DNA from: Enterobacteria phage ID18
Length of the DNA stretch: 5,486 bases
Sequence record: NC_007856.1
Strand: one strand, 5' to 3'
Below the pieces are notes generated by a model. It was given only the letters and a program-made list of their open reading frames with translations. It searched no databases and was not told the origin of the DNA. The position numbers and the translations under genes are program-made. Of this stretch, positions 59-5,486 are shown piece by piece (the stretch's first letter is position 1; every line of letters starts with the position of its first letter).

Positions 59-1729
59 ATGCAACAACACTTAACCGCTTCGGACTTCTACCGCAAACCA
101 ATAATCGACGCTATCAAACCTCTTGTCGAAACTGCTGGTATGTCTGTGCTAACTCAATCTCCTAACCTCCGTATCTGGAAACAGTGCAACACTCGCGTAA
201 AACTGCTGGAAGAAATTCTAAATCATTACACTAACGGTATTCGCCGTGATGATAATGGTGACTTCTTTCTCAACCCTGAATGCCAACTCGCCACTACAAT
301 TGCTTATCGTGCTCACAAAAAGGGCCATAACCCTCGCTTTAAACAATACCCTGAGTCATTCACTCTGGACGATATTATTACTGGCAAACCAATTCCTCAG
401 ACTGCCCCTTCTGAGCTTCAACTTACTGATGAAATCGGTGAGGATTACCGCCTTACTGTACTCTCCATAATCGAAGAGTTAGACGAATGCTACAACGTGC
501 TCGGACAACTTGATATTAATAACACTATAGACCACAAACCTATCGGTAACGCCAAATGGGACTTAATGTATGAAAAACCTGTCTATAAACACTGGTATGA
601 ACTGGTATCAAAACGACCCCTTAAATCAATCAGAGAGGACTACAACTATGCAAAGGCTAAGGGTACTAAAGATGAGTGCTCGAAAATCCTTGAGGAATCC
701 ACCATGAAATCCCGCCGTGGCTTTACCGTTCAGAGATTGATGAATGCTATGCGTACTGCCCACACTGATGGCTGGTATGTTGTATTCGATACTCTCACCT
801 TAGCTGATGATCGTATTAAGGACTTCTATGCTAACCCCAATGCTCTTCGTGACTATTTCCGTGATATTGGCCGTATGGTTCTCACTGCCGAGGGTCGTTC
901 GGTCCATGATTCATCTTCGGACTGCTATCAGTACTTTTGTGTGCCTGAGTATGGCACCCAGCATGGCCGTTTACACTTTCACGCAGTGCATCTTATGCGC
1001 ACACTTCCTTTGGGTTCTCTCGACCCTAACTTTGGTAAGCTGGTGCGTACTAATCGGCAAATAAATAGCTTGCAAAACACATGGCCTTATGGTTACTCTA
1101 TGCCCATCGCAGTCCGGTATTCTCAGGATGCTTTCTCTCGCGCTGGATGGCTCTGGCCTGTCGATACAAAGGGTGAACCCCTTAAATCCACCTCGTATAT
1201 GGCTGTAGGCTTCTACGTTGCTAAATACGTTAATAAAAAATCTGATGTTGACATAGCCGCAAAAGGCTTAGGGAATCAAAAATGGAACGCTACATTAAAA
1301 ACGCAGATGGCTCTTTTACCAAAGAAACTATTTCGAATTCGAATGAGCCGCAACTTCGGGATGAAACTACTCCCAATGACGACGCTGACCGCGGAGTGTT
1401 TAATCCAACTGACCCAAGTGGGTTACGACGTGACCCCGTTCAACAACATCTTGAAGCAGAACGCCAAGAAAGAGCTACGATTGAGGCTGGCAAAGCAATC
1501 TGTAGCCGACGTTTTGGAGGCGCAACCTGTGACGACCAATCTGCTAAAATTCATGCGCAATTTGACCCGAACAATCGGAGCGTCCAGCCTACAGAGTTTT
1601 ATCGCTTCAATGACGCAGAAATTAGCAAATACGGATATTTCTGATGAAACTAAAAACTACGTTACTAATGCAGGAATTGCTGTTGCTGACTTACGACTTA
1701 AATCGAAGTGGACTGCTGGTGGAAAATGA
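59..1729 (+). CDS. A: Replication initiation protein A (rolling-circle HUH endonuclease; viral-strand nickase/ligase)
   Basis: Long ORF (frame 2) strongly similar along its C-terminal two thirds to phiX174 protein A as recalled. HUH motif HFHAVH is encoded at about 974-991 and the catalytic YVAKY tyrosines at 1214-1228. Start placed at ATG 59, which has a GGAGG Shine-Dalgarno at 45-49 with 9-nt spacing; the track's ATG at 29 has none. Stop TGA at 1727-1729. Confidence 0.85.
506..535 (+). other. Viral (+) strand origin of rolling-circle replication (30-nt ori core, protein A nick site)
   Basis: Sequence CAACTTGATATTAATAACACTATAGACCAC is identical to the conserved phiX174/G4 origin 30-mer as recalled. 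Protein A is expected to nick between G512 and A513. It lies inside gene A, as in all phiX-like phages. Confidence 0.85.
704..1729 (+). CDS. A*: Protein A* (in-frame internal initiation product of gene A; 341 aa)
   Basis: In-frame ATG at 704 encoding MKSRRGF..., the same N-terminus as phiX174 A*, preceded by GAGG at 692-695. The predicted length of 341 aa equals the phiX174 A* length as recalled. Expression is inferred by homology. Confidence 0.65.
1070..1099 (+). promoter_or_regulatory. Candidate promoter pB (inside gene A, upstream of gene B)
   Basis: -35-like TTGCAA at 1070-1075 and a weak -10-like TACTCT at 1094-1099 (18-nt spacer), about 180 nt upstream of the B start. Position and sequence resemble the phiX174 region TTGCAAAATACGTGGCCTTATGGTTACAGT. 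Weak -10, so low confidence. Confidence 0.3.
1282..1644 (+). CDS. B: Internal scaffolding protein B (120 aa), encoded entirely within gene A in a different frame
   Basis: 120-aa ORF in frame 1 nested in A. The product has the conserved [20 protein letters not shown] and EFYRF...GYF C-terminal motifs of phiX174 protein B. Stop TGA at 1642-1644. Confidence 0.9.
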
Positions 1730-1814
1730 AGAACTTCAATCTCAACTTAAAGAACTCGAGGGCGTCTTACTTCGCAACCTTTCGCCATCATCTCAACGTG
1801 GTAGCAAAGACTGA
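1644..1814 (+). CDS. K: Protein K (56 aa; small membrane-associated protein modulating burst size)
   Basis: Not in the ORF track (short). ATG at 1644-1646 overlaps the B stop (TGATG). Hand translation gives [56 protein letters not shown] (56 aa), closely matching phiX174 K (QELLLLVYELNRSGLLAENE). Frame 0, overlapping the end of A and the start of C; stop TGA at 1812-1814. Confidence 0.8.
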
Positions 1815-1995
1815 CGCGCTTGATGAAGAAAAATGGCTCAATATGATGGGCGCTCTTCTTAAGGACTGGTTCCGCTATGAACAACATTTCGTACATGGCA
1901 AAGAATCAATGCTTGACATTCTAAATGAACGTGGCCTATTATCCACCTTGCCAAATGGCTTAACTTACAAAGGAATCAAAAATGAAAGCAAATGA
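1726..1995 (+). CDS. C: Protein C (89 aa; switches stage II to stage III DNA synthesis and assists ssDNA packaging)
   Basis: ATG at 1726-1728 overlaps the A stop TGA at 1727-1729 (ATGA). The product [21 protein letters not shown]...[13 protein letters not shown]...[13 protein letters not shown] matches phiX174 protein C. The track ORF 1708..1995 begins at an upstream GTG and is probably over-extended. Confidence 0.85.
1913..1942 (+). promoter_or_regulatory. Candidate promoter pD (inside gene C, driving D-E-J-F-G-H)
   Basis: Perfect -35 TTGACA at 1913-1918 and -10 TATTAT at 1937-1942 with an 18-nt spacer, about 40 nt upstream of the D start. The homologous phiX174 sequence GCTTGACATTTTAAAAGAGCGTGGATTACTATC is the known pD location. 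Confidence 0.55.
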
Positions 1996-2443: not shown

Positions 2444-2516
2444 AAAATCTATTCGCCGCTCTGGTGGCAAATCTAAAGGTGCTCGCCTCTGGTATGTTGG
2501 CGGCACACAATTCTAA
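2436..2516 (+). CDS. J: DNA-binding/packaging protein J (26 aa; small basic core protein)
   Basis: Not in the ORF track (short). AGGAG at 2425-2429, 6 nt before ATG 2436. Hand translation gives MSKKSIRRSGGKSKGARLWYVGGTQF (26 aa), highly basic with the C-terminus GARLWYVGG.QF shared with phiX174 J. The short length is G4-like (phiX174 J is 38 aa). Stop TAA at 2514-2516. Confidence 0.8.
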   Translation: MSKKSIRRSGGKSKGARLWYVGGTQF

Positions 2517-2522
2517 TCTCTA

Positions 2523-2544
2523 AGGGGCTTCGGCCCCTCTATTT
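2523..2544 (+). terminator. J-F intergenic hairpin AGGGGC-TTCG-GCCCCT followed by CTATTT; candidate intrinsic terminator / mRNA-stabilising stem-loop
   Basis: Perfect 6-bp GC-rich stem (2523-2528 with 2533-2538) closed by a TTCG (UUCG-type) tetraloop, followed by a T-containing tail. The analogous position in phiX174 carries the post-J terminator. Confidence 0.55.
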
Positions 2545-2555
2545 AAGGATACAAA

Positions 2556-3836
2556 ATGTCTAACGTACAAACTTCCGCTGAACGTATTCCGCATGACCTC
2601 TCACATCTGGTATTCGAAGCTGGTAAAATCGGACGCCTTAAAACTATCTCCTGGACTCCTGTTGTCGCTGGTGATTCTTACGAAACTGAAATGGTAGGCG
2701 CTATTCGTCTTTCTCCTCTCCGTCGTGGTCTGGCTGTCGACTCTCGCGTCGACGTCTTTACTTTCTATATCCCTCATCGTCATGTCTATGGTCAACAATG
2801 GATTGACTTTATGAAGACTGGCGTTAACGCTACTCCTCTGGCTCCGGTAACTTGTTCCTCTGGCTGGGATTCTGCTGCCTATCTTGGCACTATCCCGTCA
2901 ACTAATTTGAAGGTTCCTAAATTCCTTCATCAATCTTATCTCAATATTTACAACAACTACTTTAAGCCGCCGTGGTCTAATGACCTCACCTATGCTAACC
3001 CATCTAATATGCCCGCTGAGGATTACAAATGGGGCGTTCGTGTCGCTAACTTAAAATCTATCTGGACCGCGCCCCTTCCTCCTGATTCATTAACTAAGCA
3101 GGATATGACTACTGGCGCTACCACTATCGATATTATGGGCCTACAAGCTGCCTATGCTAAACTCCACACTGAACAGGAACGTGACTATTTCATGACTCGC
3201 TACCGCGATATTATGAAAGACTTTGGCGGTCACACCTCCTACGACGGTGATAACCGTCCTCTGCTCCTGATGCGCTCTGAATTTTGGGCCTCTGGCTATG
3301 ACGTCGACGGTACTGACCAAACTTCATTGGGTCAGTTCTCTGGTCGCGTCCAACAAACCTTTAATCATAAAGTGCCTCGCTTCTATGTTCCTGAGCATGG
3401 CGTAATTATGACTTTATCTGTTACTCGCTTCCCTCCTACTCACGAAATGGAAATGCACTATCTCGTCGGTAAGGAATCTCTGACTTATACTGACATTGCC
3501 TGTGACCCTGCTCTTATGGCTAACCTGCCTCCGCGTGAAATTGAGGTAAAAGACCTCTTTCACTCTGCTGGTACTGGTAAATTCAAAATTGCCGAAGGTC
3601 AATGGTATCGTACTCAGCCTGACCGCGTTGCCTTCCCTTATAACGCTCTTGACGGCTTCCCTTTCTATTCTGAACTGCCGTCTAATGATATTCTCGAACG
3701 TGTACTTGTTCGAACTGATAACTATGATGAAATCTTCCAGTCTATGCAACTTGCACACTGGAACATGCAAACTAAATTTAACACTACTGTATATCGTCAT
3801 ATGCCTACCACTCGTGATGGCATCATGACGTCATAA
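2556..3836 (+). CDS. F: Major capsid protein F (426 aa)
   Basis: AAGGA at 2545-2549, 6 nt before the ATG. The product is collinear with phiX174 F along its full length (MSN.QT.AER.PHDLSHL, RLSPLRRGLA.DS, IDIMGLQAAYA.LHT.QERDYFM.RY, GTDQTSLGQFSGRVQQT, LPPREI, FKIAEGQWYR, TTRD.IMTS). Confidence 0.95.
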   Translation: MSNVQTSAERIPHDLSHLVFEAGKIGRLKTISWTPVVAGDSYETEMVGAIRLSPLRRGLAVDSRVDVFTFYIPHRHVYGQQWIDFMKTGVNATPLAPVTCSSGWDSAAYLGTIPSTNLKVPKFLHQSYLNIYNNYFKPPWSNDLTYANPSNMPAEDYKWGVRVANLKSIWTAPLPPDSLTKQDMTTGATTIDIMGLQAAYAKLHTEQERDYFMTRYRDIMKDFGGHTSYDGDNRPLLLMRSEFWASGYDVDGTDQTSLGQFSGRVQQTFNHKVPRFYVPEHGVIMTLSVTRFPPTHEMEMHYLVGKESLTYTDIACDPALMANLPPREIEVKDLFHSAGTGKFKIAEGQWYRTQPDRVAFPYNALDGFPFYSELPSNDILERVLVRTDNYDEIFQSMQLAHWNMQTKFNTTVYRHMPTTRDGIMTS

Positions 3837-3845
3837 AACAAAACG

Positions 3846-3881
3846 TTGAACGGGTACAAATTTTAATTTGTGCCTGTTCAA
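3846..3881 (+). other. F-G intergenic imperfect hairpin (about 13-bp stem including G-T/G-U wobble pairs, AT-rich loop)
   Basis: 3846-3858 (TTGAACGGGTACA) pairs with 3869-3881 (TGTGCCTGTTCAA) around the loop AATTTTAATT. It sits in the 92-nt F-G untranslated region, which in phiX-like phages holds the post-F terminator and complementary-strand priming signals. Confidence 0.4.
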
Positions 3882-3928
3882 GGTTGAACAAGCGAAGCGC
3901 GTTAGCTAACTTACTTAAGGAAATTCTC

Positions 3929-4462
3929 ATGTTTCAAACTTATCTCTCTAAACATAATTCTCCGTTAACTTCTCTGTCTATTACTGCTACAAAAACACCT
4001 GCGGCTGCTGCTCCGATTATTTCTACACCGGAGCTTAGCCGCTCTACTATTTTCGCTGGCTTAACTCTGACTGCTGCCACTACTCATTCTGGTGTCGCTC
4101 ATGTCGTTCGTATTGACGAAACCAATCCTACTGACAATCAGGTCTTATCGGTCGCCGCTTCTTTATCTGGCGTACCGTCTGATGCTATTGCTATTGCTAT
4201 TCGCTTTGAGGTCGCTGACGGTACCGTCCCTACTGCTCTCCCTGCTCTCTACTCTGCTTATCCGGTGGAATTCTTCACTTCTGGCGCTGCTCTGTCTTGT
4301 AAGGATGCCGTATCTATTCCGACGCATCCTGTTACTGCTGGTAATGATGTATATGCTGGTATTCTTATCTGGTCCAAATCTTGGTCCGCTGGTGTCGTCT
4401 CCGGCCTCTTATCTGTTAATCAGGTAAACCGTGAAACTACCGTACTCCAACCTCTTAAATAA
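3929..4462 (+). CDS. G: Major spike protein G (177 aa)
   Basis: ATG at 3929 preceded by TAAGGA at 3916-3921. The product begins MFQTYLSKHNS (phiX174 G begins MFQTFISRHNS) and ends ...SLNQVNRETTVLQPLK (phiX174 ...SLNQVIKEIICLQPLK). The track ORF starts at an upstream TTG (3884) and is over-extended. Confidence 0.88.
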   Translation: MFQTYLSKHNSPLTSLSITATKTPAAAAPIISTPELSRSTIFAGLTLTAATTHSGVAHVVRIDETNPTDNQVLSVAASLSGVPSDAIAIAIRFEVADGTVPTALPALYSAYPVEFFTSGAALSCKDAVSIPTHPVTAGNDVYAGILIWSKSWSAGVVSGLLSVNQVNRETTVLQPLK

Positions 4463-4472
4463 GGTCTAATCT

Positions 4473-5486
4473 ATGTTCGGTGCAATCGCTGGCGGTATCG
4501 CCTCCTCTCTCGCTGGTGGACTCCTGAACAAAGCATTCGGGGGCGGTTCTTCCGCTCCCCAATCTGGCGTTCAAGGTAATGTCCTCGCTACTGACAATAA
4601 TGTAATCGGTGCTAATGATGCTGGTATCAAATCCGCTATTCAGGGTTCTAATCCTCCCAATGGTCAACAAGCTGCTCCCAATGCTATATCGGGCGTTCTT
4701 GCCGATACTGGCAAAGACGCCCTATCTTCAATCACTGGCGCTGGCGTTAATAAACTTATGGAAAAAATCGGACTCTCTAAAGATGCTGCTGCTAAAGGTA
4801 AGGATACGAAAGATTATCTTGCTTCTGCGTTCCCCGAACTCAACCCGTGGGAACGTGCTGGCGCTGGTGCTTCTTCTGCTGGAATGGTTGATGCGGGATT
4901 CCAAAACCAAAAGGAATTAACTCGCATGCAGCTTGACAATCAAAAAGAAATCGCTAAGATGCAAAACGACACTCAAAAGGATATCGCTGGTATCCAGTCT
5001 GTTACTTCTCGGCAAAATACTAAGGACTCTGTGTATGCTCAAAACGAAATGCTCCAATACAACCAAAAAGAATCTATGTCACGCGTTGGCGCTATTCTCG
5101 AAAACACAAGCCTCACCAAACAACAACAAACTTCTGAAATTATGCGGCAAATGCTTACTCAGGCTCAAACCTCAGGTCAACACTTTACAAATGACCAAAT
5201 CCAAGAACTTACTCGAAAGGTCGGCGCTGATATTGATGCTGTTCGTGCTAACACTGAACGTACACATGTAGAAACGGACCGCTCTAAGCAGGAGGTCCAA
5301 AACTCTCGTTACGCTTCCTCACAAGTCGGTAAAACCGCCAAGGATGTATCAAATGTCATTAGTGACGCATCTTCTGGTATTGTTGATTATTTTCGTGGCG
5401 TTGATAAAGCTGTCGCGGATACTTGGAACAATTATTTCAAAGATGGCAAATCGGATGGGATAAGCTCAAACCATCGTACCAAATAA
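4473..5486 (+). CDS. H: Minor spike / DNA pilot protein H (337 aa)
   Basis: AAGG at 4461-4464, 8 nt before the ATG. The product is collinear with phiX174 H ([132 protein letters not shown]). Stop TAA is the last three bases of the window. Confidence 0.93.

Follow-up and report, generated by a model that had tools for sequence, protein, structure and literature searches.

Genes A, A*, B, K, and C of phage phiX174 were the first overlapping genes to be described (Barrell 1976; Sanger 1977, cited in PMC8227390), and gene K was recognised when phage G4 was compared with phiX174 (cited in PMC8227390 and in the Logel and Jaschke preprint). Here, we discuss the corresponding genes of Enterobacteria phage ID18 (sequence record NC_007856.1), whose 5,486 nucleotides (nt) are the whole stretch analysed and are called the window below. 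An initial annotation, made from the sequence, had described within positions 1282-1995 a gene B nested in gene A, a gene K overlapping both A and C, and neighbouring genes whose stop and start codons overlap. We hold with high confidence that positions 1282-1995 carry the canonical block of overlapping early genes found in Bullavirinae microviruses, here in a WA14-like Gequatrovirus. The gene positions and reading frames agree with annotated relatives throughout, whereas the sequence constraint proposed for the overlaps holds for one part of the block, and translational coupling appears plausible at one of its two stop/start junctions and weaker at the other.

Gene content and junctions of the block

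When the whole window was compared with GenBank phage records by megablast, the single-piece, full-length match was coliphage WA14 (98.4% identity), followed by phage EMCL318 (97.5%) and then by several hundred G4-like records at 80-90%. WA14 (DQ079909) is also 5486 nt long and is written in the same register, and A*, B, K, C, D, E, J, F, G, and H occupy the same positions in it as in the window; these ten sets of coordinates recur in EMCL318 (MG563770; 5489 nt). The full-length match, together with the classification of WA14 in its record (Microviridae, Bullavirinae, Gequatrovirus), indicates that the window is the complete genome of a WA14-like, G4-type relative of phiX174. Genomes of Bullavirinae span about 5.4-6.1 kb. 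The window follows the order A-A*-B-K-C-D-E-J-F-G-H on one strand, as shown by aligning it end to end with WA14 and its 11 annotated genes. The features of the block, with lengths of proteins and open reading frames (ORFs) in amino acids (aa), are as follows.

59 to 1729, + strand: gene A, replication initiator (Pfam PF05840, Phage_GPA, 1.9e-57; WA14 annotates 59-1729)
704 to 1729, + strand: A*, from an in-frame internal start within A (WA14 annotation; Shine-Dalgarno pairing of -6.2 kcal/mol, 3.8th percentile)
1282 to 1644, + strand: gene B, internal scaffolding protein, 120 aa, nested wholly in A (Pfam PF02304, Phage_B, 8.3e-51; WA14)
1414 to 1641, + strand: doubly constrained core, the C-terminal 76 codons of B over A (variability, ratios of nonsynonymous to synonymous change, and an invariant run at 1424-1476)
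1642 to 1646, + strand: B stop/K start junction TGATG (B stop TGA 1642-1644, K start ATG 1644-1646)
1644 to 1814, + strand: gene K, non-essential accessory protein, 56 aa, over the end of A and the start of C (Pfam PF12283)
1726 to 1729, + strand: A stop/C start junction ATGA (C start ATG 1726-1728, A stop TGA 1727-1729)
1726 to 1995, + strand: gene C, DNA maturation and switch to single-strand DNA synthesis, 89 aa (Pfam PF12025, Phage_C, 2e-37; WA14)
1982 to 1995, + strand: C/D overlap of 14 nt (ATGAAAGCAAATGA), with the D start within the tail of C (sequence check and relatives)
from 1982, + strand: gene D (gpD), start at 1982 (Pfam PF02925, 4.5e-83)

The Pfam matches of A, B, K, C, and D all lie well above the curated cut-offs, and these matches and the annotated phage genomes together settle the identity of the genes. 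The ORF of A is open from 29 to 1729, and A, B, K, and C contain no internal stops. Gene B lies in another frame within the 3' part of A, a K homolog begins where B stops and extends across the boundary between A and C, and a protein C homolog follows directly after A and before D. Every feature of the Bullavirinae A/B/K/C block that can be tested in sequence was thus found, namely four protein families, the nesting of B, two junctions, synteny, and the 30-nt origin of replication. The same architecture is annotated in EMCL318, ID2, G4, phiX174, ID204, WA3, FL68, ID8, NC2, ID12, and ID11.

The positions that the initial annotation gave to A, B, K, and C are borne out by the GenBank annotation of WA14, which has the same B, K, and C coordinates and the same end of A at 1729. 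A script returned the frames it had assigned (position modulo 3: A, 2; B, 1; C, 1; K, 0), so that all three forward frames are used. Both junctions, TGATG at 1642-1646 and ATGA at 1726-1729, are present as described, and codons of A, K, and C all overlap at the latter, where the four bases are read as AAA/TGA in A, AAT/GAA in K, and ATG/AAG in C. It had also counted two genes as missing from its list of ORFs; in a mechanically derived list with a 60-aa threshold, K alone is missing within 1282-1995, and C appears as a 95-aa ORF beginning at GTG 1708.

That longer ORF raises the question of whether C starts at the in-frame GTG 1708 rather than at ATG 1726, in which case ATGA would be no start/stop junction. 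Among the start codons of the mechanically derived ORF, GTG 1708 comes first, an in-frame GTG occurs at the same offset in G4 (1702) and phiX174 (115), and the codon lies within an invariant run (1698-1719). That invariance, however, is expected from double coding by A and K, all annotated relatives start C at ATG, the only Shine-Dalgarno-like element (GGTGG) sits between the GTG and the ATG, and the alignment to Pfam Phage_C begins at residue 6 of the protein that starts with this ATG. We regard a start at GTG 1708 as extremely improbable.

Comparisons were made with eleven G4-like genomes, phiX174, and alpha3, all with annotations; the 12 G4-like genomes referred to below are these eleven and the window. 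TGATG at B/K and ATGA at A/C are invariant in all 12. G4 itself (NC_001420) shares with the window the gene order, the frames, both junctions, and the lengths of B (120 aa) and K (56 aa), but its nucleotide identity over 704-1950 is approximately 87% and the N-terminal third of its B is largely different. In phiX174 (NC_001422; genus Sinsheimervirus), B is likewise nested in A, with TGATG at B/K and ATGA at A/C, whereas C has 86 aa, the C/D junction is ATGA, and A has 513 aa against 556 in the window. In alpha3 (NC_001330), B again lies within A, and B and K meet at TTTCTGATGA, as they do in the window and phiX174, but A ends 27 nt before C starts, so that both the ATGA junction and the triple-read bases are absent.

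The junction between C and D, at the end of the interval that the initial annotation covered but unmentioned by it, takes several forms. The 14-nt overlap, together with an 89-aa C with a different tail, occurs in the window, WA14, and EMCL318 only. The ID2 clade has ATGA, and in the G4 clade an 84-aa C ends before D with a 1-nt spacer (TGA-A-ATG). Both the C/D junction and the tail of C are labile in evolution.

Constraint across the overlapping frames and the standing of gene K

The 704-1950 block aligns gap-free across the 12 G4-like genomes, which are 87-97% identical to the window over this range. We estimated the ratio of nonsynonymous to synonymous divergence (dN/dS) in each frame by pooled pairwise Nei-Gojobori comparison with codon bootstraps and counted variable alignment columns. 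Two caveats apply to these values: the pairwise Nei-Gojobori method is approximate for overlapping frames and segments of 26-27 codons have wide bootstrap intervals.

A only (704-1281): dN/dS 0.04 in the A frame; 19.2% of columns variable
A/B, N-terminal 44 codons of B: dN/dS 4.0 in the B frame and 0.17 in the A frame; 42% variable
A/B, C-terminal 76 codons of B: dN/dS 0.50 in the B frame and 0.35 in the A frame; 9.6% variable
A/K overlap: dN/dS 0.24 in the K frame and 2.6 in the A frame; 18% variable
K/C overlap: dN/dS 0.15 in the C frame and 6.9 in the K frame (7.1 in the same frame just past the K stop); 20% variable
C only: 24% variable

In every overlap segment, one frame dominates and the other takes the amino-acid changes, except in 1414-1641, where both A and B are conserved. 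There, the synonymous difference in A falls from 0.28 in the A-only part to 0.08, and an invariant run of 53 nt occurs (1424-1476). Nucleotide diversity in the A/K (0.074) and K/C (0.082) overlaps is close to that of single-coding sequence (0.077 and 0.100), and it reaches 0.19 in the N-terminal half of A/B; the dN/dS of gene C ranges from 0.09 to 0.15. The initial annotation had expected very strong sequence constraint from the overlaps. Given the variability and the dN/dS pattern, this expectation holds for approximately 230 nt (1414-1641) and not for overlaps in general; the other overlaps show no greater conservation than sequence that is read in a single frame.

Variability within the aligned 704-1950 block peaks at 1282-1413, which encodes the first 44 codons of B and residues ~408-452 of A. 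Here, the synonymous difference in A (0.47) is above that of the A-only part (0.28), and the segment acts as a hypervariable linker for both the A and B proteins.

The same division of labour is visible over the short distance to WA14. Synonymous and nonsynonymous differences between the window and WA14 number 38 and 3 in A, 6 and 0 in C, 12 and 0 in D, and 8 and 0 in F, against 2 and 6 in B, 0 and 3 in K, and 2 and 9 in E. Gene E lies inside D (2157-2432), and the asymmetry of this pair resembles those of A/B and C/K. The frequency of T at third codon positions (the Fiddes-Godson test, applied to the window alone) favours B in the A/B overlap (0.32-0.39 in the B frame, 0.14-0.16 in the A frame) and A over K in the A/K overlap (0.46 and 0.15), and was uninformative for K/C, which has too few codons. 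In the published overprinting model, K and the extensions of A and C are later additions (Pavesi 2021, PMC8227390), and the constraint asymmetry seen here agrees with that model.

The protein that the initial annotation had translated by hand as K proved to be a genuine K homolog. Its match to Pfam Protein_K (PF12283; E = 6.3e-15) scores 55.6 bits, the cut-off being 25. Along its full 56 residues it shares 54% identity with phiX174 K (E = 1e-17), and in the stretch of 37 residues that BLASTP aligned with G4 K the identity is 81%. The 53-aa K of alpha3 is similar to that of the window over the first 21 residues only. A K-like translation was found in 383 phage records by tblastn, in which the low-complexity filter masked the leucine-rich residues 1-19, making coverage unusable as a test of open frames. 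The interruption of the K frame in close relatives had been named beforehand as an outcome that would speak against the gene; eleven of the 12 G4-like genomes have an uninterrupted K frame of 56 aa, and in the twelfth, ID204 (1638-1790), an early stop cuts K to 50 aa while gene C is intact.

Under the contrary explanation, K would be non-functional here, a chance open frame over A and C with an annotation carried over from phiX174 and G4. Of 2000 shuffles of the codons of A, 0.75% produced an alternative-frame ORF of 120 aa or longer (P = 0.0075) and 35% one of 56 aa or longer; the B ORF is therefore unusual in itself, the K ORF is not, and the case for K is one of homology. In its C-terminal half, the K frame has much the same dN/dS as the non-coding control frame (6.9 against 7.1), the protein is shortened in ID204, all three K differences from WA14 are nonsynonymous, and phage Lilleto has no K annotation. 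Saturation mutagenesis of phiX174 points the same way: K was the only protein with tolerated nonsense variants, and no mutation confined to the K ORF impaired fitness (bioRxiv 10.64898/2026.07.25.740675). Against this stand the Protein_K match, 30 bits over the cut-off, a start position and TGATG kept in all three genera, a frame open at 56 aa in phiX174 as well as in 11 of the 12 G4-like genomes, and the A/K overlap, where the K frame is conserved and A yields. A K protein with an effect on burst size is, moreover, reported in older work (Gillam 1985; Tessman 1980, both cited in the Logel and Jaschke preprint). We consider a chance origin of the frame very unlikely; K is a real, conserved family member that is weakly selected.

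The first ~28 residues of K are the only part with purifying selection in the K frame. We tentatively propose, as a reading that is more likely to be wrong than right, that functional K consists of only these leucine-rich residues over the end of A, its C-terminal half being an unconstrained read-out of C sequence that could be cut short, as it is in ID204. As a separate point in this reading, the WA14 clade, including the window, moved the C stop 14 nt into D, so that C now contains the Shine-Dalgarno site and start of D; G4, ID2, and phiX174 lack such a junction. The same mutagenesis study found substitutions to be sensitive in 56.3% of cases in overlapping coding sequence and in 51.7% in single-coding sequence (bioRxiv 10.64898/2026.07.25.740675), a modest excess that matches the moderate, uneven constraint in the block of the window.

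One further candidate was rejected. An 85-aa hydrophobic ORF in the K frame inside A (807-1064) is broken off at codon 4 in 7 of the 12 G4-like genomes and lies within the range of shuffled sequences; it is therefore a chance ORF.

Expression signals and translational coupling

The initial annotation had taken the overlaps to imply translational coupling. For each start, the anti-Shine-Dalgarno pairing energy of the preceding 17 nt was calculated and compared by rank with that at all 5486 positions.

A at 59: -9.5 kcal/mol, 0.4 percentile
J: -8.0 kcal/mol
B: -6.0 kcal/mol
D: -5.6 kcal/mol
C: -4.3 kcal/mol, 13.5 percentile; a GGUGG element, weak but present
K: -3.3 kcal/mol, 22.6 percentile; background

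The two weakest sites of the block belong to K and C, the two starts that overlap an upstream stop (UGAUG at B/K and AUGA at A/C). Weak sites combined with stop overlap are the signature that would be expected of termination-reinitiation.

Which ribosomes could be coupled depends on the transcripts, and two promoter homologs are predicted in and around the block.

1070 to 1099, + strand: predicted PB promoter homolog inside A, TTGCAA 1070-1075 and TACTCT 1094-1099 (by-eye alignment with phiX174 4863-4892)
1913 to 1942, + strand: predicted PD promoter homolog inside C, TTGACA, 18 nt, TATTAT (best sigma-70 match in the whole window, 11/12)

Both lie at positions equivalent to their phiX174 counterparts. 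The transcription start at 4899 in the phiX174 record corresponds to ~1106 of the window, and the PB homolog lies within the invariant runs 1052-1077 and 1088-1110. The promoter consensus scan missed it, owing to its weak -10 hexamer. The position of the PD homolog matches that of TTGACA 320-325 and TACTAT 344-349 upstream of D in phiX174. By analogy, both sites presumably act as promoters; a 2.5- to 6.4-fold rise in transcript levels is due to pB in phiX174 (Logel and Jaschke preprint). B and K are both downstream of the predicted PB homolog, whereas the starts of A (59) and A* (704) are upstream of ~1106. Transcripts from PB would therefore carry B, K, and C without the A and A* starts, so that coupling from B to K would be possible on all relevant mRNAs and coupling from A to C only on the minority initiated at PA or arising by read-through.

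On this basis, we propose the following scheme. B and D would initiate on their own Shine-Dalgarno sites. K, which has no recognisable site, would most likely be translated by ribosomes that end at the B stop (UGAUG) and restart in place, tying a low output of K to the abundant translation of B. C would probably initiate mainly on its own weak GGUGG site, with re-initiation after A/A* termination (AUGA) helping only on the minority of transcripts that carry the A and A* starts, and the tail of C, which overlaps the D start by 14 nt, would carry promoter PD. Coupling from B to K is thus plausible; coupling from A to C would be weaker, and its role as the main route to C is questionable.

Several points weigh against coupling. 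Most mRNAs over C would probably carry no A-frame ribosomes to couple from. The invariance of TGATG and ATGA could also be explained by the conserved YGYF C-terminus of B and by double or triple coding. RNA structure at 1600-1760 is unremarkable (folding z = -0.20) and hence gives no sign that masked K or C starts need an upstream ribosome, and the coupling proposed for this genome is read from its anatomy. A direct demonstration of coupling at these junctions was not found in the literature on phiX174 decompression and transcription.

The stop/start overlaps might, alternatively, be by-products of compaction and overprinting, with each gene initiating independently and no regulatory coupling. 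Short overlaps in prokaryotes at large most often take the form ATGA or TGATG. B, D, and A* each possess a Shine-Dalgarno site, C has GGUGG, and the absence of A and A* starts from PB transcripts fits independent initiation too. The C/D junction exists in three forms within the G4-like phages (14-nt overlap, ATGA, and 1-nt spacer), and in alpha3 A and C are separate, so that no one type of junction is essential. A decompressed phiX174 is viable, too (bioRxiv 10.1101/2020.06.10.143693; PMC11527146). Yet K, without Shine-Dalgarno pairing above background, starts exactly on the B stop in all three genera. In phiX174, moreover, removal of the A/C and K/C overlaps reduced both protein C and fitness (Wright et al., bioRxiv 10.1101/2020.06.10.143693), and a gene-expression model that repositioned the genes with ribosome-site strengths unchanged could not reproduce the expression changes (PMC11527146). 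These decompression results would lend indirect support to the view that native junctions matter. We consider wholly independent initiation unlikely, though far from negligible, and retain the scheme in which K is coupled to B.

The wider genome and the significance of the block

Upstream of the block, the start of gene A is likely ATG 59, which is preceded by GGAGG (-9.5 kcal/mol), rather than ATG 29, whose pairing energy is +2.2 kcal/mol. Between these two codons, a hairpin at 31-50 (GCCTCC...GGAGGC) runs into a series of T residues, an arrangement that matches phiX174, where terminator T_H overlaps the gene A ribosome site. The viral-strand origin 30-mer CAACTTGATATTAATAACACTATAGACCAC occurs as an exact copy at 506-535, inside gene A. 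The exact 30-mer is also present within gene A of phiX174 (at 4299) and G4 (at 500), but an exact copy is absent from alpha3.

The spacer between F and G has 92 nt in the window (3837-3928) against 136 nt in G4, and it does not align with the primase-dependent complementary-strand origin of G4 (primer region 3970-3997). By eye, it contains a long hairpin of its own at ~3846-3882 (TTGAACGGGTACAAA ... TTTGTGCCTGTTCAA). The complementary-strand origin of the clade to which the window belongs may differ from that of G4.

A total of 86 substitutions separate the window from WA14, and they are unevenly distributed, with 62 in nt 1-2500 and 24 in nt 2501-5486; either past recombination or a tighter constraint on F and G might account for this. 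At the protein level, B of the window carries P18S, P20S, H36D, L40F, and Q97N and K carries P3L, K51Q, and G54S relative to WA14, whereas protein C is identical. An exact-sequence look-up of the window B and H proteins returned no record in the public assemblies searched.

The A/B/K/C arrangement has been known from phiX174 since 1976-77 and is ordinary for the family, and the nearest GenBank record has identical coordinates. What is particular to this phage is limited to the few B and K amino-acid differences from WA14 and the clade-specific 14-nt C/D overlap. As the founding example of overlapping genes, the block carries little weight as a discovery; its value is as a calibration case, in which a 56-aa gene and all of the junctions were found correctly from raw sequence. 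For the biology of these phages, the block indicates that overlap alone does not amount to extreme constraint: approximately 230 nt are doubly constrained here, and elsewhere one of the two frames absorbs the change.

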